Source of the DNA: Candidatus Bipolaricaulota bacterium
GTDB taxonomy: Bacteria > Patescibacteriota > Patescibacteriia > UBA11705 > DATKZF01
Direction: 5' to 3'
Assembly: GCA_035528115.1 (NCBI GenBank)
Contig: DATKZF010000003.1
Coordinates: 487,089-551,088, forward strand
Length of the DNA: 64,000 bases
Of the stretch, positions 16,958-62,217 are shown one piece after another. The notes beneath the pieces were generated by a model. That model was not told where the DNA came from, searched no databases, and saw only the letters and a program-made list of their open reading frames with translations. The first letter of the stretch is position 1. Each line of letters starts with the position of its first letter. The translations under genes were made by a program, and so were the position numbers.

Positions 16958-17124
16958 GAATTACAATTATCTAGTAGGCCGATTAATATATGTTACAAAT
17001 TACATTCATCAATAGTTTTAAGCCTGAGAATCTTGTGATTCGTAACAATCGCTTGAAAGCTAAATAGTCGATTGTAATACGTAACAAATAACCTAAAAGC
17101 TAAATAGAATTTTGTAATTCGTAA
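16958..17124. repeat. MITE-like element with no cargo, bounded by inverted repeats GTTACGAATTACAA ... TTTTGTAATTCGTAAC and containing internal partial copies
   Basis: The terminal inverted repeats are read directly. An internal 42-nt stretch (ACAAATAACCTAAAAGCTAAATAGAATTTTGTAATTCGTAAC) recurs inverted at 40480-40535. Confidence 0.6.
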
Positions 17125-17144
17125 CAAATCACTAATTTCATTAA

Positions 17145-17782: not shown

Positions 17783-17811
17783 TTGACAAGAAACAAAACC
17801 GGTGTTAATAT
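17783..17811 (+). promoter_or_regulatory. Sigma-70 promoter TTGACA, 17-nt spacer, TAATAT, followed by a GGAGGTGG RBS at 17843-17850
   Basis: Read directly; it drives the GC-rich ORF that starts at 17855. Confidence 0.5.
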
Positions 17812-17854
17812 ATCGACGTCATTTCACATCTCACAATTTGCGTGGAGGTGGCAG

Positions 17855-18274
17855 ATGTCCGATGACAGAAAATTCGAGGAGGCTTTCCCGGGAAGCTATG
17901 GACACTCGCAGCTCGATGAGGAGATTCCGAGCCAAGGTTCGGATCCCGAGTCCATGCTGCTTCAGGGCGGCCGAGAGCTTCGCCTTGACATGATCGGTGA
18001 TGAACTGGTCAGAAGGCTGACGCCGCGGGAGGAAAAGATCCTGCGCATGCGGTTCGGCATCGGCGAGGACGATGAGTCTCCGCTGAAGGACAAGGACATG
18101 TCGGAGGAAACTCGACGGCGCGTGGAATTGATCGAGCAGAAGTCGTTGAGGAATCCCCGCCATCCCTGCCAGAAGAATCAAGCCGAAGCTCGTCGCCGAG
18201 TGCTTGAGCTTTTGGCGAAATCCCGGCGCGATCTCCGCGCAGTTGTCGACATCGAAGAAGAAGCCGTGGGCTAG
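17855..18274 (+). CDS. Small protein made of a sigma-70 (RpoD-type) region 3.2/4 fragment, GC-rich and foreign-looking
   Basis: LTPREEKILRMRFGIG...TRRRVELIEQKSLRNPRHP is near-identical in pattern to RpoD LTAREAKVLRMRFGI...TRERIRQIEAKALRKLRHP, but the HTH turn TLEEVGKQFDV is replaced by EDDESPLKDKDMSEE. GC is about 58% with G/C-ending codons. Confidence 0.5.
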   Translation: MSDDRKFEEAFPGSYGHSQLDEEIPSQGSDPESMLLQGGRELRLDMIGDELVRRLTPREEKILRMRFGIGEDDESPLKDKDMSEETRRRVELIEQKSLRNPRHPCQKNQAEARRRVLELLAKSRRDLRAVVDIEEEAVG

Positions 18275-18296
18275 CAAGCACAGTTGTTAGCCTCTC

Positions 18297-18320
18297 AAGG
18301 ACTCGAAATCGGGTCCTTTT
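18297..18320 (+). terminator. Hairpin GGACTCG-aaat-CGGGTCC (one G-U pair) plus TTTT
   Basis: Directly after the stop of the sigma-fragment ORF. Confidence 0.55.
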
Positions 18321-18375
18321 AAAATTGTTTTAAGCCTTGAAAAAAAGGGTTGATTGGGATAGAATGTTAATGTTG

Positions 18376-22224: not shown

Positions 22225-22977
22225 ATGCACAAATTGAAAACACAATTGATGGAATTCGGACTTTTCGAAAAAGAAGCCGAAGCTTATTTGAAATTGTTGT
22301 CGGCCGGAGAAGCGAAAATCAGCGAATTGGCCGCTTCGCCGGATGTTCTCGGGAGTTTTTTGGTGGCTTTGGATTCATTGGCCGACAGAGAATTGATCTT
22401 AAAAAATAAAGTCGGAGATGTTTTTTATTATCAAGCCAAAGACCCGGAACATGTGCTGGCCAGTCTTCAAGAGAAAAAGGCCAGAGCCGAATTAAGCCGC
22501 GATAAAATCGACAAGGTGATGCTTAATTTGAATTGGCTTTATACTCAATCCGGAGGCAAGAAAGAAAAAGCGGCCGGAGTTTATCAAGGTTACGAAGGCG
22601 TGCTGGAAATCAGAAAAAAGATTTTTGAAAAAAAACACCAGAATATTTACAACATCACGTCGCTTCACCAATATTTGCCCAGAGCGCATGTGGAATCCAT
22701 GCTGGAGAACGTCAATGAATCTTATTTGGCCATTGTGCCCCAGCGCGATGAAAAATATTTGAAGGAATTGGACGGCTTAACCGGTAAAAATTCCAAATTA
22801 AAAATCAAACTCGCGCCTGACGCCATGTGGCCGGATAAATCGGAGGTTTTGATTTTTGGAGATTACGTCGCTTTCGGCGATATTGAAGATGAGCAAAGAT
22901 TCGTTTTAATTCAAAACGAACTGGTGGCGCAAAACATGAAAACCATGTTTGAAAATATGTGGAGCGATTTAAAATAA
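22225..22977 (+). CDS. TrmB-like regulator, more divergent paralogue
   Basis: FEKEAEAYLKLLSAGEAKISELAA HTH pattern; adjacent and co-oriented with 21449-22207. Confidence 0.45.
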   Translation: MHKLKTQLMEFGLFEKEAEAYLKLLSAGEAKISELAASPDVLGSFLVALDSLADRELILKNKVGDVFYYQAKDPEHVLASLQEKKARAELSRDKIDKVMLNLNWLYTQSGGKKEKAAGVYQGYEGVLEIRKKIFEKKHQNIYNITSLHQYLPRAHVESMLENVNESYLAIVPQRDEKYLKELDGLTGKNSKLKIKLAPDAMWPDKSEVLIFGDYVAFGDIEDEQRFVLIQNELVAQNMKTMFENMWSDLK

Positions 22978-23135
22978 ATGTCCGGGAATCGTCTTTGGCG
23001 ATCCCCGGAATTGACGCGCGCCGAATTTGCGATTTCGGTAAAGGCCGCAGTGAAAGATTCCTTTCCCGCCCCCTTTCAGTGCCGGTACTTGGAACCTTTC
23101 GGGCACCAGATCGGTTGGGGTTTTAGCCCTGGTGG

Positions 23136-23408
23136 CTACCGGTTTTTGAATGCCAGCAGCACGCACAACCAATAGACGATCGCCACGCGCTTTGCGATTT
23201 CGCGTTTGCGGATGTCCATGGCGGTCCTTTCCCAGCCTCCGCCGGACAAGCCGGCGCTGCCCGCTCTAAAGCCGCCCTTGGGCGACGACTCGGCGGCCAC
23301 GTAGCGGGAGAGAGATTGTCTCTCCGGCGTACCGGTTAAGGCCTCCTTTCCGGCTTCGGTTGTGCGATTGGCAACTTTGCCCGGCACAACGGATTTTTCT
23401 GGGTCCAT
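23136..23408 (-). CDS. Hypothetical GC-rich small protein with a single C-terminal TM anchor
   Basis: RBS-like GAGGG upstream of ATG (MDPEKS...); C-terminus KRVAIVYWLCVLLAFKNR is hydrophobic; high-GC3 codons. Coding status is uncertain. Confidence 0.25.
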   Translation of the reverse strand: MDPEKSVVPGKVANRTTEAGKEALTGTPERQSLSRYVAAESSPKGGFRAGSAGLSGGGWERTAMDIRKREIAKRVAIVYWLCVLLAFKNR

Positions 23409-23586
23409 TCCTAGACCCTCAGGACCTCGGAGCTCACTTGAATCCTCCTGTCGATCTGGGCGCACGTGTCTGTATTATTATAACATAAAAAAGCGTAAAA
23501 ATTCGCAAAAAAATGCTCATTGGGAGTTGTTTTTATTTTTGGAGTAATTGCGGTATAATGTTTGTGCTAAAAACTTTCTGAATATT

Positions 23587-24687: not shown

Positions 24688-25824
24688 ATGAAAAACATCG
24701 CCATCGACGTTCGGTGCCTCCTGGAGGAGCGGCTGACCGGCGTCGGAGAATACACTTTTAATCTTTTAAAGTCGATTTTCGATATTGATCGCAATAATCA
24801 ATATTTTTTATTTTACAATCAAAGCGAGCCGTTTTTGGGGCATATTAAAAAGCTGGAAGCTGAAAACGTCACGCTCTGCGGATTCAAGATTCCCAATAAA
24901 TTTTTGAATTTGTCGCTAGGGGTGTTCGGCCGGCCTTTTTTGGATTCGCTGGTCGAGACTCAATGCAAGACTAAAATTCATCAGTTTTTTTTCCCCAACA
25001 TCAATTTTTTGTCGGTATCCCCGCTATGCAAATATATGGTCACTTGCCATGATTTATCTTTTGAAATTTTTCCGTATTTTTTTTCAACCAGACAAAAATT
25101 ATGGCACAAGGCGGTCAGGCCAAAAAGAATCTTCGAGCGCGCGGAAAAAATAATTTCGGTTTCCGCCAACACTAAAAAAGATTTGATTCAAGAATACAAT
25201 TTGAACCCCAATAAAATAGAGGTTATTCATTCGGGCATTGATATTAATTTGGACAAGTCAAAAAACGGAGAAATAAAAAGAAAATACGATTTGCCCGAGC
25301 GCTACATTTTGAGCTTGGGCACTCTGGAGCCCAGAAAGAATATTGAAACGCTCATCCAAGCGTTTGCCATGCTCAAAAAGCAAACCGAGGCGCCTCACAA
25401 ATTGATTATCGCCGGCGGCAAAGGCTGGAAGTACAAAAAGATTTTCGAGCTGGCCGCGAAAACAGATTTGGCCAAAGATATAATTTTTATCGGCTACATT
25501 CCGGCGTCGGACAAACCCAATATTTTGGCGCTGGCCGATGTTTTCGTTTATCCGTCTTTTTACGAAGGTTTCGGTTTTCCGCCCATTGAAGCCATGGCTT
25601 CGAGATGTCCGGTTATTTCCAGCCATGTGGCCTCGTTGCCGGAAATTTGCGAGAACGCGGCGCTGTTGATCGATCCTTACAGCATAGTGGATTTGTTTTT
25701 CGCCATGAAGGAAGTTTTGCGAGACAAAAATTTGAGAGTCAGTCTGATCGGCAAAGGGTTCGTGCAATCTTCGAAATTTTCGTGGCCGGAAGCGGCGGAG
25801 AAATTTTTAAAATTGATAAATTAA
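24688..25824 (+). CDS. GT4-family glycosyltransferase
   Basis: EGFGFPPIEAMASRCPVISS donor-binding motif; GT-B fold pattern. Confidence 0.85.
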   Translation: MKNIAIDVRCLLEERLTGVGEYTFNLLKSIFDIDRNNQYFLFYNQSEPFLGHIKKLEAENVTLCGFKIPNKFLNLSLGVFGRPFLDSLVETQCKTKIHQFFFPNINFLSVSPLCKYMVTCHDLSFEIFPYFFSTRQKLWHKAVRPKRIFERAEKIISVSANTKKDLIQEYNLNPNKIEVIHSGIDINLDKSKNGEIKRKYDLPERYILSLGTLEPRKNIETLIQAFAMLKKQTEAPHKLIIAGGKGWKYKKIFELAAKTDLAKDIIFIGYIPASDKPNILALADVFVYPSFYEGFGFPPIEAMASRCPVISSHVASLPEICENAALLIDPYSIVDLFFAMKEVLRDKNLRVSLIGKGFVQSSKFSWPEAAEKFLKLIN

Positions 25825-26130
25825 TGCTACGGATAGTTAATTCTAATAGGACAAGCTATGTTTGGGTGTAATCGTTTGCTACGGATATGAACTTCCAAAT
25901 AGCTTGGCTATGCGAATAAATTTAAAATAGCGACAGCATGGCTGAAGCTATTGTCGCGGGCGCTCGGCCTGCGCGGCGATGCGCGCGAATTCTTCGTATG
26001 TGTTGAATCCCATGACGACCATGCGGTGGTAAGTATCGCCGTTGTCGTCCGCGTCAGCGAAGATGTGCGGAGATGAGTCCGGCGTGATTCGTTCTACCCA
26101 CGCCTGAGATCCGCCAGGGAATGACTGAAT

Positions 26131-26322
26131 TCAGGTTTGCGCGGCATGAGCGTTCTCCTTGCCGTTGGCCAGGGCGTTGTATTTGTTGATGCCCATGATA
26201 ACAGCCACTTCGCGGCCGTTTTCGCAGATGAAGCTGATGGGCGCTTCCGGTCGGCAGTGTTGGGGGAGCCTCTCCCGCAACTTGTCGATCGGAGTTCTGT
26301 CTCGGATAATGTCGCTTGGCAT
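26131..26322 (-). CDS. Phd/YefM-family type II antitoxin-like protein (62 aa) in a GC-rich islet
   Basis: AAGGAGG RBS 5 nt upstream; APISFICENGREVAVIMGINKYNAL matches the Phd/YefM beta-strand/helix core (ITRxGKPVAVLxSxEEYExL). Confidence 0.5.
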   Translation of the reverse strand: MPSDIIRDRTPIDKLRERLPQHCRPEAPISFICENGREVAVIMGINKYNALANGKENAHAAQT

Positions 26323-26379
26323 GGCGTCCTCCTTGGTTGATATGATAAAATTAGCATAGGACGGCGGGATTGACAAATT

Positions 26380-26604
26380 CATGGATCACATATCATGGAG
26401 CACATAGCACGTATCATGCCTGCCCGCCGTAGCTTAAGAGCGAAGGCGGGGATCACCTATCATGAAACAAAAGAACATGAGACGGAAAAACAGAGAAACA
26501 AGGCCGACGCTGTTGTCATCTCGACCGAAGCGGAGAGATCTTTTCCTAATTCTTCGGAATAGATTTCTCCATCCCCAATTTCTAATTTCCGGTTTCTTAT
26601 TACC
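26380..26604. repeat. Dispersed intergenic repeat, copy A, directly upstream of the GT4 gene at 26624
   Basis: Shares a roughly 110-nt core with 46322-46547 (CATGAAAC..AAGGCCGACGCTGTTGTCATCTCGACC..GAAGCGGAGAGATCTTTTCCTAATTCTTCGGAATAGATTTCTCC..TCCGGTTTC..ATTACC) and an ATCATGGATCAC head that also appears inverted at 40565-40612. Confidence 0.65.
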
Positions 26605-32644: not shown

Positions 32645-33752
32645 AACGCGCGTTCGCGCGTTCGTCCGCGCGCCAAATCAAAAAGCGGCCATGAAAGCCG
32701 CTTTTAGATTAGCATCAACCTGCCATTTTACCCGATCAAGATGCTGTTGCCAAAAAACTGGATAGTTGGAGAGAGATTTAAAGAACATCTATCTCGTTTT
32801 TGGCAAACAGTATGCTGACAGGGTAAATCGCTCGCGAATCCTACCCGAATTTAACTATACGATGTATGACTTATTACTTGTAACTTCAAATCGTTAATTA
32901 AATTCGGGTAGGCGGGAAAAACTAGTTTGTTTTTCCCACCGGCTTCACCACTTACGGTAGGTTACACCGCCTTGCTTTGCTGGCGAGGCTGACGAGGGCC
33001 GGACACACGTATGCCCGGGAGCGGTTATTAACGGATCTCTCCGTCACTCCAGAGAAAGGCTACACCCCAAGGATTACTCCCCGAAAGGTTCACCAGCCCG
33101 TTGGAGCCAACCGCTGCGCAAAGTCCCCCGGATGGACAATCAGCGCTGTCGCGCCTTCTTCACGTCGGGCGCCCATCACGGTCATACCCAACGCTGCCTC
33201 ATTATGAGCATCTCTACTCCATCTCCTTGTAGATTGCCCTTGCCATGGAACCGGTCTTCGAAATTAGTGAAGACCGTCCCCCAAGTTTTTTATCTTGTTA
33301 CACAACTCCTATGGCCGGCCGTTTTTCAAATAGGTCCGGCTTGTTCGAAGCGTTGCAAGGGGTGGGGACTCTTCAGGGAGAGATCCCCTGTGGCGGATGA
33401 GCGATGGACCCTTTTTGGCGTTGGAGCTGAAAGCTCCTGGGTCCTGCGGTCGCGTGTCGCGCGACGCTTCATCCGCCGTTTCCGGTCCGGCCATCCTGAT
33501 GGCCGGCTAGCCTCGTTCTGGGCGCACCCGGCTAGCTGGGCGCGTTCTTTATGAGCACTGATACTCTCCTTTCTCGGTGATAAAGAATGAGCGCGCGCTC
33601 CCTTAGCCTATTTGGCCGAAGGAGCCGCCGTACGCGCTCAGCCAGCCTGAGTCTCCAAGTTAATCTTCGAAAATCAGGTTGGCCGGAGACGTCCTAGGTG
33701 AGGTTGTCTCCGATGGGGGAAAGAACGAGGAGGGGTGGGGTGGGGGAAAGGG

Positions 33753-34100
33753 TTACTTCTTCTTGCTCTTCTTGCCCTTCTCCTTACGAGCCTGGGACTG
33801 CAGCCCGGTCTGGCCCGACTCGGAGCCCTTGCTCTGGAGTCGGATCTCGCGATCGTTGTCGGCCCGCGCCTTGCGCCGCGCCTCCTGGTCCGCCGGCCGT
33901 CCCTTGCGGACGCCGCCGGGGCGGTTGAATTCCATTTTTCGGCCCCCGCTCCAACTGCCCCAGGGGGAGCTGACGGAGGATCGTCGGTTGCACTCCTCGA
34001 TGCGCTTGAGCACGAGCGGTGGTGGCTCCACGGAGACGAGCACGCATTTCGTCTGGGTCGGGGTGGGATCGGATTCTTTCGTGATCGCAACCATGTTCAT
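33753..34100 (-). CDS. Hypothetical small basic protein (115 aa) with a lysine-rich C-terminus inside a GC-rich islet
   Basis: Strong AAGGAGGG RBS 5 nt upstream of ATG and a TTGACA -35-like element; the sequence is not low-complexity except for the KEKGKKSKKK tail. Confidence 0.35.
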   Translation of the reverse strand: MNMVAITKESDPTPTQTKCVLVSVEPPPLVLKRIEECNRRSSVSSPWGSWSGGRKMEFNRPGGVRKGRPADQEARRKARADNDREIRLQSKGSESGQTGLQSQARKEKGKKSKKK

Positions 34101-34939
34101 TCCCTCCTTGGGGTGGGGTGGTTGTGTGTCCCTGAAACTACGATGTAGATGAGCGTGCTAAAGAAAGATTTGAAGGGTCATATAAATTAATAATTACCCT
34201 TGTCTTTTTTAGCTTTCTCTCTCCTCTACATCCCGGTTTCAGCGACTCTTTAAGGAAAAAAATAGACAGAAAAGATTCTGCCAGATCGCGAATCACAGCT
34301 TCGCGATAGCCTTGAACGAAAATTATGCTTTGTTCAGGGCTTGGCTGACTCTCTCCCAAAAGTCCGCTTGGTTTTCAAAGTTTCATTGTGACTTGGTATT
34401 ATATCATAATTTAATGAATTTGTCAAGCGTGGACGTAAAAAGGATTCATATTTTATCTAAAATTACATAAATCAAGAAGGATTATTAAGAGATGGCTTGT
34501 TTCGTCTCGCGCATTTGGCGCTTCGACGACCCACTTTTTGACGCCAAAAAGTGGGCAACCTGCCTGCCGGCAGGCAGGAAAGCGCTGGGGGAAAATGATT
34601 CGTAAAGCGACAATTTAATGTTAACAATCTCGCGACGGCTCAGCATTTTCCCCCAGACCCCCGGTGCTATCCGCGCGTGATTCGTCGATATTAGGACTTT
34701 TGCCTTTTATCTGCCTCATTGTTTTACCAAGGTTCGATTTTAACCGGCCAAAGAGGCAGGTAGCCGGCTACCTGCTTTTGAGAAATTAAGGAACGCTGAG
34801 GAGACCCCTGACGAATGCAAGGGGACGACGAAGCGAACCGGACGTTAGTCCATAACCTGCCCCCCGACCTTTAAAATAAGCAATAAAAAGGGAGGGGGGA
34901 CAAGGGGGGAGGGTTAAAATTATGAGGTTTCATGGCATA

Positions 34940-36412: not shown

Positions 36413-37321
36413 AGCATGGGTTTTATTGGAAGATAAATGACTACTATCATTATGCCAGTTTTATCGGTGTCTGGCAATGTCATTTGGCTTCCAATGATCT
36501 AAATAAGCCTGTAAGCCGAATTCTGTGGCCTCCGCCAAGAATTCGAACGGCAGATTTTAGAACCTGTCGGCCGAAGCCTTGGCGAAGGTCGATGACCATC
36601 TATCTAGGTCCGACATTGCTGCCGGACTCAAGCGAGCTACCAAATTTGCTCTTGCACCTGATAGGGTTTACCACGCTTGGACGTTGCCGTCCAAGGAGAG
36701 AAGTATGATTTAAATGGTCACGTGAACAATTTAACTTTTTTTCTTCTCACTTTTCACCTTTGGCCGCGAAGCGGCCACCCTGAGTGAGGAGCAGTGCGAC
36801 GAATCGAAGGGTGTAGATGTATCCTTCGACTCGCTATGCTCGCTCAGGATAGTCGCTTCGCGACTAGTATAGTCTCTGTGGCACTGGCCGTCGGCCGAGT
36901 TTCTTTCGACCCTATCTCAGAAATAATTTTCTATTCAATTGGCGAATTTAGGCTGCAAATTGTTCAAAACTCGTCACCATAATAATCATATTATGCTTCT
37001 TCGTCTTTCACAATTTTCGCTCTAAATTCGCTCAATCTCATTACGAAACTTATGTCTGAGATAGGGTCTTGTTATCTCGGCATCGCCCGGACGTTATCCG
37101 GTATCATTTTTTATGGTGTTCGGACTTTCCTCCCTCCTTCGCTCCTTGCTGCGCTCGAGCTTCGAAGGGCAAGCCCTCTTAGTTTGCGAGGGGGGTTGCC
37201 GTTCTTGGCTTCAAACAAAGCAAGGAGCGAAGAAGAGCGGTCATCCGGCTTATTCAGATCAATGAAATTATAGCAAAAAAATGATGAAATGTCAATGGTA
37301 ATTTAAAAACCGCCAGCATGG

Positions 37322-38674
37322 CTAGCGGTTGAGGAAGTTACGAAAAGCGTCGGTCACGACCATCTGCTCGAGGCGCTCGCCACAAGTGATGATGCCAAGC
37401 TGCGCGTCCGGGAAGTGTGAGGTCGAGGAATTTGTGACTCCAAGCAGGAAGTCCTGCGCCTCGTCCGGCAGTTGACTGAAACTTCTGGCCGCGCCCGTCC
37501 CGCTTTTCCAGCCGTTGAAATTGACAACGTCGGGCTCGCACAGGTCCCAGTCAGCAATGCGAGCGGGCGGGTACGCGAAGCGCTCGCCGCGAAGTTGCCA
37601 GGTATCCACGACCGGGATTTTAGGTTGACTGTCGAGCACGTCCAGTTTCGTAAAGCACAGGAAGTTCGGCGCGCAGAGCCGAATTCCTTGTCGAAGGAGC
37701 GGGAGATTGAGCGGGCCGCAACGTCGAGGGCGTCCGGTGGTGACGCCGAATTCCGCGCCGCGTTGTCGCAGAGACTCTCCGGTGTCGGATTTGTCTTCGC
37801 CGGGAAAAGGCCCGCCGCCGACTCTGGTGGCGTAGAGCTTGGATACTCCGATCGTGAACGCGATGTCCATTATCGTCAATCCCGCTTGCGCGATCAGGCC
37901 GGCTGCGGTCGTTGATGACGAAGTGACGTACGGGTACGTCCCGAACAGCCGATCAAGCAGAGCTCCTTGGCCCGGTTCGATCAGGCCGATGTCGCCGTTG
38001 CGTTTGATTTCATCGATTACTCGTAAGGTGTCCGTGACGCGACCGCCCAGCTTTCGGACGGAGTCAATGACATTGTCCACTTCGCATTTTTCTTCGGGCC
38101 GGCCGCAGCCGCGCAAGATGGCGTTGGCGAGGTCGTACGCCAGCTTGAGCCTCTGTTCAGCTTTGTCGCCGCTCTCAAGCAGTTCAAAGAATGTCGGTCC
38201 GACCCGGAATGCCTGCATGGCGTAGGTCGGGCCGATGCCGCTGCCCGTGGTGCCGATACGGTCATTGCCCATGAGAATTTCGATGGCCGCTTCGACCGAA
38301 CGATAGATCGGCAAAACGACTTGAGCGCGACCGTCGATCAAGGTTGGCGAGACGTTGACTCCTTGGGCGCGCAGGTCCGTCATTTCTTTTTTCAGCGCGA
38401 CTGGGTCGATGACCATGCCAGCTGCCAAAATGGCCGTGATGTCGGGATCGAACACGGCCAGCGGCAGGTAATGGCTTTTTTGGAGTCGACCGAAGCTGTC
38501 TCTGTACGAATGGCCGGCATTGCCGCCGCCATTGGGCCGAATGGCCCATTTGATGCGCGGGTTGTGGCTCTGCTTCATCAGCTGAGCCAGACGCAGAGAG
38601 ACAGACCCTTTGCCGTTGTCTCCGAACGTCAAATCGGAGAGTAAAATGAACCTGCCGCGAAGATTAGGCATCAT
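37322..38674 (-). CDS. purA: Adenylosuccinate synthetase-family protein, divergent and GC-rich
   Basis: P-loop GDNGKGS (PurA GDEGKGK), GGGNAGHS (catalytic His), TTGSGIGPTY, YATRVGGGPFP, GVTTGRPRRCG, and the GTP-specificity motif TKLD. About 62% GC, in contrast to the AT-rich promoter TTGACT-17-TAAACT upstream. Confidence 0.8.
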   Translation of the reverse strand: MMPNLRGRFILLSDLTFGDNGKGSVSLRLAQLMKQSHNPRIKWAIRPNGGGNAGHSYRDSFGRLQKSHYLPLAVFDPDITAILAAGMVIDPVALKKEMTDLRAQGVNVSPTLIDGRAQVVLPIYRSVEAAIEILMGNDRIGTTGSGIGPTYAMQAFRVGPTFFELLESGDKAEQRLKLAYDLANAILRGCGRPEEKCEVDNVIDSVRKLGGRVTDTLRVIDEIKRNGDIGLIEPGQGALLDRLFGTYPYVTSSSTTAAGLIAQAGLTIMDIAFTIGVSKLYATRVGGGPFPGEDKSDTGESLRQRGAEFGVTTGRPRRCGPLNLPLLRQGIRLCAPNFLCFTKLDVLDSQPKIPVVDTWQLRGERFAYPPARIADWDLCEPDVVNFNGWKSGTGAARSFSQLPDEAQDFLLGVTNSSTSHFPDAQLGIITCGERLEQMVVTDAFRNFLNR

Positions 38675-38751
38675 GGCCTCTCTTTCTTTGTATGTCATTG
38701 CCCATGGAAAGTTTAGAAGCTTTGAGGAGAAAAGTCAATCATTGCGCAATT

Positions 38752-40394: not shown

Positions 40395-40612
40395 CGAATT
40401 ATTACTTCTAATAAGCTAGCCTTGGTTTTAGGTTTTGTGAATCGTTACGAATGATTACAAATACGTTTATGTTACGAATTACAATATTCTATTTAGCTTT
40501 CAGGTTATTTGTTACGAATTACAATATTCTCAGGCATAAAGCTATAGGTGAATGTAATTTGGAAAAATGCTCCATGATACGTGATCCATGATCTATGGTA
40601 ACGTCTCGTAAT
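40395..40612. repeat. Intergenic array of GTTACGAAT(G)ATTACAA repeat units, plus an inverted copy of the 42-nt repeat ACAAATAACCTGAAAGCTAAATAGAATATTGTAATTCGTAAC and an inverted partial ATCATGGATCAC head
   Basis: The GTTACGAATTACAAT motif occurs twice in tandem (40493, 40523). The 42-nt stretch at 40480-40535 is the reverse complement, with 2 mismatches, of 17080-17124. The stretch 40565-40612 is the reverse complement of the head of the repeat at 26380. Confidence 0.6.
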
Positions 40613-46047: not shown

Positions 46048-46326
46048 ATGAAGAACAAATTATCCACAAAACCCGGCACAACCAAATTGAACAATACGGG
46101 CGATTGGCGGACTTATAAGCCGGTGGTTGATCATAAGCGTTGTATCGCCTGCGGCGTTTGTTCCCGCGTTTGTCCGGAAGGGTGCATTTTTTCAGTGGGA
46201 GAAAAAATGCTTCAAAAAGGCGGTAAAGTTTTTTTCGAACACGATTTGGACTATTGCAAGGGCTGCGGTATTTGCGCGGAAGAGTGTCCGGTCAAGTGCA
46301 TTGAGATGGTTCGGGATAAATCATGA
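46048..46326 (+). CDS. porD: 2-oxoacid:ferredoxin oxidoreductase delta subunit (2x[4Fe-4S] ferredoxin)
   Basis: CIACGVCSRVCP and CKGCGICAEECP cluster motifs. Confidence 0.8.
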   Translation: MKNKLSTKPGTTKLNNTGDWRTYKPVVDHKRCIACGVCSRVCPEGCIFSVGEKMLQKGGKVFFEHDLDYCKGCGICAEECPVKCIEMVRDKS

Positions 46327-46547
46327 ATCATGGATCATGAAACGAAAGAATATGAGACAGAAAGACAGAGAAACAAGGCCGACGCTGTTGTCATCTCGAC
46401 CTCTCGACCTTGCTCGGGGCAGGCCGAAGCGGAGAGATCTTTTCCTAATTCTTCGGAATAGATTTCTCCAACCCCAATTTTTCCGCCAAAGGCGGATCCG
46501 CCTCGGGCGGATAATTTCCGGTTTCCGGTTTCCGGTTTCTCATTACC
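46322..46547. repeat. Dispersed intergenic repeat, copy B (with insertions), upstream of porA
   Basis: Same core as 26380-26604; it carries an extra (TTTCCGG)x3 tract. Confidence 0.65.
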
Positions 46548-60880: not shown

Positions 60881-61066
60881 CTATTTGAATTTTTTGATTT
60901 TTTTTCTCGAAGAAACACCCGTGCCCGGAATGCCCGTATTGAGAAAAATTCCTTTTCTGCCAATGTTAATCGATATGCCTGGGATGCCGATAGAGAAGCT
61001 GACGCCGTTTTTTGAAATATTCAAGCGCGCATTGCGGCCGAGCCTGATTCTTTTTTGGAAGCGCAT
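60881..61066 (-). CDS. DUF4236-family small protein, copy B (61 aa)
   Basis: MRFQKRIRLGRNARLNISKNGVSFSIGIPGISINIGRKGIFLNTGIPGTGVSSRKKIKKFK; tandem paralogue of copy A. Confidence 0.6.
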   Translation of the reverse strand: MRFQKRIRLGRNARLNISKNGVSFSIGIPGISINIGRKGIFLNTGIPGTGVSSRKKIKKFK

Positions 61067-61129
61067 GACTTTATCTCCTTTTCAAGAAAAGAGGCGGCTT
61101 GGATTGTCCAAACCGCCTCATGTCATTGA

Positions 61130-61663
61130 TTACTCCTTCTTGCGGCCGGCGTCCTTTTCCGGAGCCTCTTCGAGAACCTTGATCTTGGTGATGGCCTCGA
61201 AGGCCGGCTCGAGCTGCTGGAGCAGGGTTGCCATCATTTCACGGCCCGTGCCCTGCATGCAGTACTCGGCCACCTTGGCCACGGTCTCGCAGTTGGGGAT
61301 GAACCCGTACTGCGTGGACAGGTAGTGCACCGCGCTGGCCACGAACAGCGGCTCGAGCATGTGGCCGAGCGCGGTGTCGAAGAACTTGGGGTAGGTGTCG
61401 CCCAAGGTGCGGCGCAAGATGCCAATCATCAAGTCGCACGCTTCTTCGGATCCGGCGATCTTGGCGCCGTGCTTGAGGTTGACTGTGACAGCATGGAGAG
61501 TCTGATTGGGCTTGTCGGTCATGCTGGACATGGTGGTTTCTCCTTGGGTGGTGGTTTGTTTATCGGTCTGCGGTATTTCGCCGAGCGCCTGGGCTGCGTC
61601 CTCTCCTGCAGCCTCGCCGAGCGCTTCGGCGATTCTTTTTTTGACATCCTTGACACTGCTCAT
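61130..61663 (-). CDS. Hypothetical protein (about 177 aa) with very GC-rich, G/C-ending codons; foreign-looking
   Basis: GGAAGGAG RBS. The ATG overlaps the upstream gene's stop (TAATG). Codons are dominated by ctg/gtg/gcc/aag/ttc/cac, unlike host genes. No recognisable domain. Confidence 0.4.
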   Translation of the reverse strand: MSSVKDVKKRIAEALGEAAGEDAAQALGEIPQTDKQTTTQGETTMSSMTDKPNQTLHAVTVNLKHGAKIAGSEEACDLMIGILRRTLGDTYPKFFDTALGHMLEPLFVASAVHYLSTQYGFIPNCETVAKVAEYCMQGTGREMMATLLQQLEPAFEAITKIKVLEEAPEKDAGRKKE

Positions 61664-62217
61664 TAATTTTCTCCTTCCGTTACCGCATCCTCTTTTTTTT
61701 CTTTCTTCTCCTCCTTCTTGGTTCCCTTCTCCTTGCCCCCATTCTTCCTGAGGGCTTTCTCTTTGTCTTGCCGCGAAAGAATGCTCTCCATGAGAGCATC
61801 GATGACGATTTGGACTGATAGCCATGAGTCGCATTGCCCCAGCTCACGAATGACATCATCGTCATCAATGACTGAAGTCTTGACGTGGTCTTTTAGCGAA
61901 TCTCCCAGAATAAGGTAGCATAAGTGGCAATGCGGGCAGATTTTGATGAAGTCGCCGGCAAACTTCATGATGATATAGTAGTGACTCCTGCACTCATAGC
62001 ATGGCTGAGCGGTGAAGAAATGGACAGCCTTGCTTGGGTTGCCGGCCGCGTTTTCGATTCGTCTTTTCAAAGCGCTAATGATGGCTTCTCCATTGATTTC
62101 CCACGGATTCTTGTGTGAAAAATAGTTAATAAGCTCTTTTCTTACGTTAATGTCCATGTCTTGAGCTCCTTTGTCTCCGCGGGTTTTTAAGTTATCAATG
62201 AACATGTAAGGAAGCAT
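61663..62217 (-). CDS. Hypothetical zinc-ribbon protein (CxxC...CxxC) with a K/E-rich C-terminal tail
   Basis: CYECRSHYYIIMKFAGDFIKICPHCH; the tail is KEKGTKKEEKKEKKED. A TATAAT lies immediately upstream of the ATG, so the transcript may be leaderless. Confidence 0.4.
   Translation of the reverse strand: MLPYMFIDNLKTRGDKGAQDMDINVRKELINYFSHKNPWEINGEAIISALKRRIENAAGNPSKAVHFFTAQPCYECRSHYYIIMKFAGDFIKICPHCHLCYLILGDSLKDHVKTSVIDDDDVIRELGQCDSWLSVQIVIDALMESILSRQDKEKALRKNGGKEKGTKKEEKKEKKEDAVTEGEN

Follow-up and report, generated by a model that had tools for sequence, protein, structure and literature searches.

Most likely a broken two-domain Phd-like regulator, not a toxin-antitoxin module, between two glycosyltransferase genes of a Patescibacteria-like genome

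What kind of gene is represented by a short antitoxin-like reading frame that ends at a TGA, continues in the same frame beyond it with a degenerate second copy of its own core, and has no toxin gene at its side? The question is raised by a locus on the minus strand of contig DATKZF010000003.1 (assembly GCA_035528115.1), of which we analysed a stretch of 64,000 nucleotides (nt), referred to here as the window. The locus lies between two glycosyltransferase (GT) genes, and consists of an open reading frame (ORF) of 63 amino acids (aa), ORF1, and of the in-frame segment that follows its TGA; the coordinates of these and other features are collected in Table 1. At the same place, syntenic relatives carry a single intact gene encoding a protein of 110 aa with two homologous domains, and no toxin gene, whereas the window copy has lesions in the linker between the domains. 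The gene is most likely a broken two-domain Phd-like regulator, and not a toxin-antitoxin (TA) module.

The intact gene in syntenic relatives

The relatives were reached by searching with the flanking GT, and not with ORF1. They keep the gene order GT0-GT1-GT2-DUF4012. In two of them, L018 and L019, the GTs are 63-75% identical to those of the window and ~91% identical to each other, and one intact 110-aa ORF lies between GT1 and GT2 on the opposite strand, with its own ribosome-binding site (RBS), AAAGGAG, at the equivalent place. The protein, which in L018 is MNRMPWDKVKANLFFLLKPDTKIIEIMRAGQTTAVIMGIEKFRELRIDQAEKLSLIELKEYFDKWSQRSSKAAIVSVNNREMIAIMGINLYRMRTRDFQLLKGGKNKTSG, contains the core ..A-V/I-IMGI..F/Y.. 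twice per polypeptide. Profiles of its two domains are homologous when compared using hhalign (85% probability, E=6e-6), so that, as judged by profile comparison, the relatives' protein is an internal tandem duplication. The ratio of non-synonymous to synonymous substitution rates (dN/dS) between L018 and L019 was 0.24 for the gene as a whole (domain 1, 0.32; domain 2, 0.15); on these ratios, purifying selection acts on the small gene in the relatives.

ORF1 and the post-TGA segment are, taken together, collinear with these 110-aa proteins. An earlier note on this DNA, made from its letters alone, had reported that the frame stays open past the TGA for 60 codons without a start, and a reading of the sequence bears this out: the segment is closed by a TAG, it has no start codon ahead of MVVMG, and the two MG motifs are 183 nt, i.e., 61 codons, apart in one frame. 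Upstream of the small gene, the promoter layout TTGTxA-17-TAATTT is common to the window, L018 and L019, and the conserved block TATG(T/C)TAATTTTA(C/T)CA is present in L018 and L019 too. A consensus scanner did not flag the putative promoter of the small gene. At the other end, the relatives have a terminator after domain 2, i.e., a 13-bp hairpin whose loop holds the stop codon and which precedes a U run (z=-3.4 and -3.6), while the weaker terminator-like hairpin of the window is at the equivalent place, past the second stop and not past ORF1. In the window, both domains appear still to be covered by one transcription unit. Given the synteny, the collinearity, the promoter layout and the position of the terminator, we conclude that the window locus is the orthologue of the single two-domain gene.

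The start of ORF1 also differs between accounts. The earlier note had described a 62-aa ORF with an AAGGAGG RBS; the RBS is as described, but the ORF is of 63 aa. The public gene call (JGI/NCBI; NCBI HUT22618.1, hypothetical protein) is of 83 aa, at 26131-26382 on the minus strand, and its ATG at 26382 lies upstream of the conserved -35 and -10 elements, without an RBS. Because the conserved promoter falls inside the 83-aa extension, the 63-aa start is favoured; this start, at 26322, agrees with the M-P-W start in the relatives.

Is the second copy real? Within the window, BLASTP of the two copies aligned only VIMGINKYNALA with VVMGFNTYEEFA (shuffle p ~0.01), and when the two units were aligned globally as DNA, the score did not reach significance (z=1.6). 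A 20-nt core repeat at the DNA level was rejected as an independent signal, being accounted for by common amino acids together with GC-biased codons, and a MAFFT alignment in which short pieces of the window were set against the 110-aa proteins came out misaligned and was not used. We accept the second copy as real because the relatives carry two homologous domains, and because it aligns collinearly with the second of them (E=5e-4, described below); the degenerate copy proposed in the earlier note is thereby upheld. Domain 1 is 57% identical between L018 and L019, and 29-39% identical between the window and the relatives (by tblastn, ORF1 matched L018 with 39% identity over 44 aa), while the corresponding values for domain 2 are 78% and 18-24%. 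Against a hidden Markov model (HMM) built from the two relatives, the window scored 22 bits with domain 1 (E=8e-9, single-sequence search space) and 2-3 bits with domain 2. Of the two halves, domain 2 is the more strongly conserved one between the relatives and the less conserved one in the window, where, by this comparison, it is under relaxed constraint.

A profile search of 5.8 billion proteins found only three distinct members of the family, i.e., P0007 (from L018), P0008 (from L019 and L061) and the protein of the window. Searched exhaustively with phmmer, 1.84 billion representative proteins yielded ORF1 itself and, beyond it, only spurious matches to proteins with repeats (of the ankyrin type, or GVNKYNRLGNGKEN in a plant protein). 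Word-index searches with ORF1 and the second copy found the identical sequence only, or nothing, and the second copy had no match in a scan of metagenomes. In the distant relatives L008, L020, L021 and L027, the gap between GT1 and GT2 is 54-152 nt and contains no gene. The small gene is lineage-specific, and confined to a narrow Patescibacteria-like clade. The NCBI label of the metagenome-assembled genome (MAG) that contains the window is 'Candidatus Bipolaricaulota'; of the syntenic relatives that carry an informative label, most are MAGs of the Patescibacteria/Parcubacteria type.

The locus has 55-58% GC, against 40-45% in its flanks, and a foreign island or horizontal transfer was considered and rejected: the gene is syntenic and ancestral, and its orthologue has a host-like composition (30-32% GC, in relatives of 32% GC). 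The genome of the window has 45% GC, and GC at third codon positions (GC3) is ~0.5 even in its conserved GTs. The simplest reading would be a lineage-wide drift to higher GC, followed furthest by fast-evolving, weakly constrained sequence, so that the GC-rich island here would mark a fast-evolving ancestral locus, and not foreign DNA. The genome is a mosaic elsewhere in the window too, with islands of 55-67% GC at 17801-18350, 22951-23500, 32901-34200, 37301-38700 and 61001-61750; one of these is the adenylosuccinate synthetase gene, and the others hold ORFs without a Pfam match. The 32%-GC relatives have no such GC-rich islands.

This composition might also mean that everything at the locus, and ORF1 with it, is a dead pseudogene, in which 63 codons are open only because stops are rare in GC-rich sequence. 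Four of the six frames are indeed open over ~200 nt here, ORF1 has no homologue beyond its two orthologues among the 1.84 billion representative proteins, and it is the better-conserved half of the gene that has been lost. However, the promoter layout and a strong RBS have been kept despite the large shift in GC, and ORF1 retains its 29-39% identity, and its 22 bits, to a domain 1 that itself evolves fast (57% identity where the GTs have ~91%). GC in ORF1 is also distributed over the codon positions in a coding-like manner (0.56/0.43/0.75), a GC3 of 0.75 against 0.43 at second positions fitting the annotated frame. We therefore regard a wholly dead locus as unlikely.

Lesions in the linker

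The linkers of the relatives contain no stop codon, and the TGA is therefore a lineage-specific lesion. Measured from the NAL codons (REL or KRL in the relatives) to the SL codons (SLADL in the window, SLIEL in the relatives), the linker is 49 nt long in the window, against 24 nt in L018 and L019. The excess of 25 nt matches, in both place and size, a duplicate of the initiation region of ORF1, an out-of-frame internal RBS and ATG that were absent from the earlier note; read in the frame of ORF1, the excess leads to the TGA three codons on. In a local alignment, the duplicate (CAAGGAGAACGCTCATGCC) and ORF1's own initiation region (CAAGGAGGACGC-CATGCC, 26335-26318) share 17 matches out of 18, with one gap. 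The duplicate is ~19 nt long and non-random (shuffle p=0.0004), and its spacing is AAGGAG, 7 nt, ATG.

Beyond the duplicate the frame changes once more. SLADLRR is encoded in the +1 frame, and what follows of domain 2 (WVERIT...MVVMGFNTYEEF) again has the frame of ORF1; when aligned to the relatives' SLIELKEYFDKWS, SLADLRR runs collinearly into the frame-1 WVERIT... Apparently, one nucleotide was lost near 26100, ~45 nt further along, and because the net change in the linker would then be 24 nt, the two cores are still in frame, 183 nt apart. Using hhalign, domain 2 of the relatives aligned with a frame-2-to-frame-1 chimera over 40 columns (E=5e-4), and with frame 1 alone over 13 columns (E=3e-3). 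Whatever the exact history, and in whichever order the lesions may have arisen, domain 2 is not obtained by any standard decoding. The window is part of a 604-kb contig of a JGI metagenome. A Logan assembly made independently from SRR8554643 was base-for-base identical over the whole region, which shows that neither the stop nor the frame structure was introduced by assembly.

Could the TGA be read through, whether by a programmed or a leaky mechanism, to give a two-domain protein of ~124 aa from frame 1? The earlier note had raised programmed read-through, and several features would suit it: both domains are in one frame, the intact gene encodes a two-domain protein, the terminator-like hairpin is past the second stop and not the first, and the post-TGA segment has a coding-like GC periodicity (0.63/0.47/0.69 by codon position, which fits the annotated frame). 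Nevertheless, the orthologues lack this stop, and no tRNA, including tRNA-Sec, was found within the window. TGA is a normal stop in this genome, where it terminates 5/36 long ORFs of the window, so the standard code applies, as the earlier note had held from its use elsewhere in the window. The post-TGA stretch aligns with the relatives no better than does the +1 frame; the residues directly after the stop, IQSFPGGSQA, would put a Pro/Gly-rich stretch in place of the first half of the domain-2 helix, and align worse. We consider read-through very improbable. The two-domain protein that had been envisaged is thus found in the relatives, as the intact 110-aa form, but read-through to it in the window is not borne out.

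The duplicated start suggests a different alternative, i.e., gene fission, in which the duplicated RBS and ATG would have created a second cistron, the two domains being made, now or until recently, as separate, heterodimerising polypeptides. The 1-nt break after 16 codons would then be very recent, polymorphic, or bypassed by a -1 frameshift, the last giving a predicted junction peptide MPRKPEFSHSLADLRR(W/G)VERIT. The non-random nature of the duplicate (p=0.0004), its ideal spacing, its overlap with the end of ORF1 like that of a coupled cistron, and the agreement of its size with the 25 extra nt of the linker would all be explained, and it is the frame-2/frame-1 chimera that aligns over 40 columns with domain 2 of the relatives. 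However, the +1-frame ORF ends after 17 codons in both independent assemblies, and domain 2 has strongly diverged. As to a programmed -1 frameshift, the site CUC AGG CGU GGG UAG has no X XXY YYZ heptamer, and there is no strong structure downstream of the CGU GGG UAG (fold z=-1.3). We therefore think separate synthesis of the two domains, at present or in the recent past, improbable.

The locus was also considered as a structured RNA, which we rejected: there was no Rfam match at gathering scores or at E<=1, the folding z values were -1.3 and -2.0, and the GC periodicity fits the coding frame.

Table 1. Features of the small gene in the window (positions are those of the window)
Feature	Coordinates	Strand	Details
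Putative promoter of the small gene	26376..26348	minus	-35 TTGTCA (26376-26371), 17-nt spacer, -10 TAATTT (26353-26348)
Shine-Dalgarno AAGGAGG	26334-26328	minus	5 nt ahead of the ORF1 ATG; read from sequence
ORF1	26322..26131	minus	63 aa, MPSDIIRDRTPIDKLRERLPQHCRPEAPISFICENGREVAVIMGINKYNALANGKENAHAAQT; includes TGA at 26133-26131; read from sequence
Duplicate RBS and ATG	26161-26143	minus	caAGGAGaacgctcATGcc; +1 frame, overlaps the 3' end of ORF1, within the inter-domain linker
+1-frame ORF from the duplicated start	26147-26094	minus	17 codons, MPRKPEFSHSLADLRRG, then TAG
Post-TGA in-frame segment	26130-25951	minus	60 codons exactly, IQSFPGGSQAWVERITPDSSPHIFADADDNGDTYHRMVVMGFNTYEEFARIAAQAERPRQ; closed by TAG at 25950-25948
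Domain-2 remnant	within 26130-25951	minus	recognisable homology from 26100 (WVERIT..MVVMGFNTYEEF..)
Terminator-like hairpin	25957..25918	minus	overlaps the frame-1 stop TAG 25950-25948, then UAUUUUAAAUUU; -12.1 kcal/mol, z=-1.4 (weak)

Likeness to Phd/YefM antitoxins, and the missing toxin

PF02604 was the sole Pfam match for all three orthologues (E 0.005-0.02), and Phd/YefM was the only Pfam/NCBIfam match of these natural sequences. The scores were all under the cut-offs, which are 29.8 bits for PF02604 and 20.8 bits for TIGR01552. ORF1 scored 17.0 bits with PF02604 and 16.1 bits with TIGR01552 (E=0.005 in both cases), L018 scored 16.9 and 18.8 bits, respectively (E=7e-4 for the latter), and L019 scored 14.9 bits with PF02604; the second copy of the window matched neither model. 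The likeness of ORF1 to Phd/YefM claimed in the earlier note holds, although the match of the natural sequence stays sub-threshold.

The signal became sharper when the half-domains were pooled, using consensus sequences, which are heuristic and not natural proteins. Pooled consensus sequences of five or six half-domains scored 26.5-27.3 bits with PF02604 (E 3-5e-6, just under the cut-off) and 25.5-28.9 bits with TIGR01552 (E ~1e-6, above it). The consensus of domain 1 only scored 15.6 and 17.2 bits, respectively, and that of domain 2 only gave no match with either model. A sharper signal on pooling is what would be expected if both halves descend from a Phd-like module. The pooled match covers profile positions 1-53 of 74, i.e., the entire N-terminal domain, and since it stops at position 53 the toxin-binding C-terminal region is absent. 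Each half-domain is of ~50 aa, with tails of 11 aa in ORF1 and of 15 aa, basic in character, in the 110-aa proteins. The top match of the family profile among PDB sequences was the YefM-type antitoxin Rv2865 (3g5o), at a non-significant E=0.67, and the predicted order of helix-strand-strand-helix in each half is compatible with the Phd/YefM fold, in models that are themselves unreliable. Probably, the half-domain and the N-terminal domain of Phd/YefM, through which these proteins bind DNA and dimerise, are homologues, although in these profile scores the natural sequences do not reach the curated thresholds.

The half-domain thus resembles Phd/YefM antitoxins (PF02604, TIGR01552; E. coli YefM, phage P1 Phd and M. 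tuberculosis Rv2865) in matching their N-terminal module, with the same order of a helix, an ..NG.. strand pair and a V-I/L-M/V-G/S-x-x-x-Y helix. Known antitoxins of the family dimerise and bind operator DNA through this module (PMC1802561). Unlike Phd/YefM antitoxins, the intact protein has two modules in one chain and no C-terminal toxin-neutralising region, its gene is monocistronic within a GT cluster and has no partner toxin, and its matches are sub-threshold.

No toxin gene was found at the locus in the window, L018, L019 or L061, the small gene being directly flanked by GTs. GT1 (24688-25824) is convergent with the small gene, and the 125 nt between the second stop and the end of GT1 hold no toxin-like ORF, in keeping with the earlier note. 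Matches to PADLOC models were also absent from the locus. Since the intact orthologues, between the same two GTs, have no toxin either, and since the distant relatives have no gene there at all, the locus is not a decayed TA pair, and an intact pair, for which the earlier note had suggested looking in relatives, is replaced there by the toxin-less 110-aa gene. A type II TA remnant whose toxin was deleted, or an orphan antitoxin acting as an anti-addiction or anti-defence decoy, would account for the Phd/YefM-like signals, and there is published discussion of solitary antitoxins (PMC3874152). However, no orthologue has a toxin or space for one, and a match limited to profile positions 1-53 leaves no toxin-binding tail. 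There were no relatives in blastn searches of phages and plasmids, or in a scan of viral contigs, and the composition of the gene is host-like in the relatives. We regard both forms of this explanation as extremely improbable.

The only upstream ORF, orf55 (26395-26562, plus strand), was considered as a partner gene and rejected, having no Pfam or PADLOC match. It is mostly inside an intergenic element (26459-26581), and is probably not a gene. The element recurs at 46334-46480, with 80% identity along 147 nt; it contains a 14-bp hairpin (GGAGAGATCTTTTCC...GGAATAGATTTCTCC), and in the copy at 46334-46480 two further GC-rich hairpins are inserted. The Logan contig L002 is broken at this element.

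Other repeated elements occur in the window. A motif of ~24 nt, ATCATGGATCAC(A/G)TATCATGGAGCA with the related ATCATGAATCATGGATCATGAAAC, is present at 26378-26403 (plus), 40592-40567 (minus) and 46320-46343 (plus), in each case upstream of, and co-oriented with, a gene: GT2, a class I Trp/Tyr-tRNA synthetase, and the alpha subunit of pyruvate:ferredoxin oxidoreductase. In this organism, it may serve as a promoter or leader element. Inverted intergenic repeats at 16993-17126 and 40470-40564 are 84-95% identical and made up of reiterated TTGTAATTCGTAAC-like units; one is downstream of a glutamate dehydrogenase gene, and the other upstream of a tRNA synthetase gene. A tandem direct repeat of ~206 nt (60607-60812/60842-61047, 76% identical) is at the edge of a GC-rich island, with ORFs without a Pfam match. 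A match to class A RNase P RNA at 36496-37181 (minus) extends over 686 nt, against a model of 367 positions, which implies large insertions.

A proposed role, and its meaning

The best explanation, which we think is probably correct, is that of a toxin-less two-domain Phd-like gene whose distal half is decaying in the window. The intact protein consists of two tandem homologous half-domains of ~50 aa, each like the N-terminal module of Phd/YefM, and would thus be a single-chain pseudo-dimer of the Phd/YefM DNA-binding module. It could be a small transcriptional regulator that controls its own gene and, possibly, the divergent glycosyltransferase/DUF4012 operon. The small gene is monocistronic, antisense between two GT genes and divergent from GT2-DUF4012; together with its being under selection, this is the usual arrangement of a small local regulator. 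The palindromes to which the YefM dimer binds lie in its own promoter (PMC1802561).

In the window, this gene is interrupted in its linker by an extra segment of ~25 nt that duplicates the RBS and ATG of the gene, by an in-frame TGA and by an apparent loss of 1 nt. Standard decoding yields domain 1 only, i.e., the 63-aa ORF1, and domain 2 would be an untranslated, decaying remnant. Expression of domain 1 probably continues, given the conserved promoter and RBS, and ORF1 could still homodimerise in the manner of canonical Phd/YefM N-terminal domains.

Several observations weigh against this explanation. With regard to the family, no natural member exceeds a curated Pfam/NCBIfam cut-off, which is exceeded by pooled consensus sequences alone, and domain 2 by itself has no Phd match. 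A search of PDB sequences with a half-domain profile returned no Phd/YefM protein, the top match being a spurious HPr kinase. The AlphaFold2 models were of low confidence, with a predicted local distance difference test (pLDDT) score of 53.7 for ORF1 and 48.9 for the 110-aa orthologue, and Foldseek found no meaningful match to them in the PDB. With regard to the decay of domain 2, the nearly intact duplicated RBS and ATG, and the coding-like GC periodicity of the post-TGA segment, would each suggest that domain 2 could be, or could recently have been, translated. The ancestral frame of the linker was assigned from weak alignments and is suggestive only, an ungapped 11-mer test of the linker frame against the relatives being not significant.

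How does the explanation compare with known systems? Single-chain pseudo-dimers of normally dimeric small DNA-binding folds exist, e.g., MraZ with two tandem AbrB-like repeats. The 110-aa protein is like these in the internal tandem duplication of a half-domain, and unlike them in its fold family and in that its pseudo-dimer would be a predicted one. With solitary antitoxin homologues that act as transcription factors it shares a toxin-less domain that is under selection in the relatives, but it differs in its tandem architecture and in having three members in one clade. With split or frameshifted pseudogenes of reduced genomes, the window copy shares an in-frame stop, a break in the frame and a faster divergence of the part that was cut off. 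Unlike an ordinary split pseudogene, its lesion holds a non-random copy of the gene's own RBS and ATG, giving it the look of a fission intermediate.

A bolder interpretation of the same observations, which we regard as doubtful, is that the 110-aa family is an undescribed, natural single-chain tandem fusion, acting as a toxin-free transcription factor of an envelope glycosylation operon in ultra-small Patescibacteria, and that the window has been caught in gene fission, in which a templated duplication of the RBS and start into the linker would give two cistrons.

The copy in the window is a damaged gene, and its direct biological importance is modest. Weak Phd/YefM-like matches of this kind are a warning against assigning labels such as 'orphan antitoxin' or 'decayed TA' without syntenic comparison, and the case shows the loss or splitting of such a small gene in one lineage. 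If the explanation that we favour, of a toxin-less two-domain gene, is true, a DNA-binding module of TA systems would have been duplicated within one protein and recruited as a regulator that stands alone, in a reduced genome of the Patescibacteria-like type.

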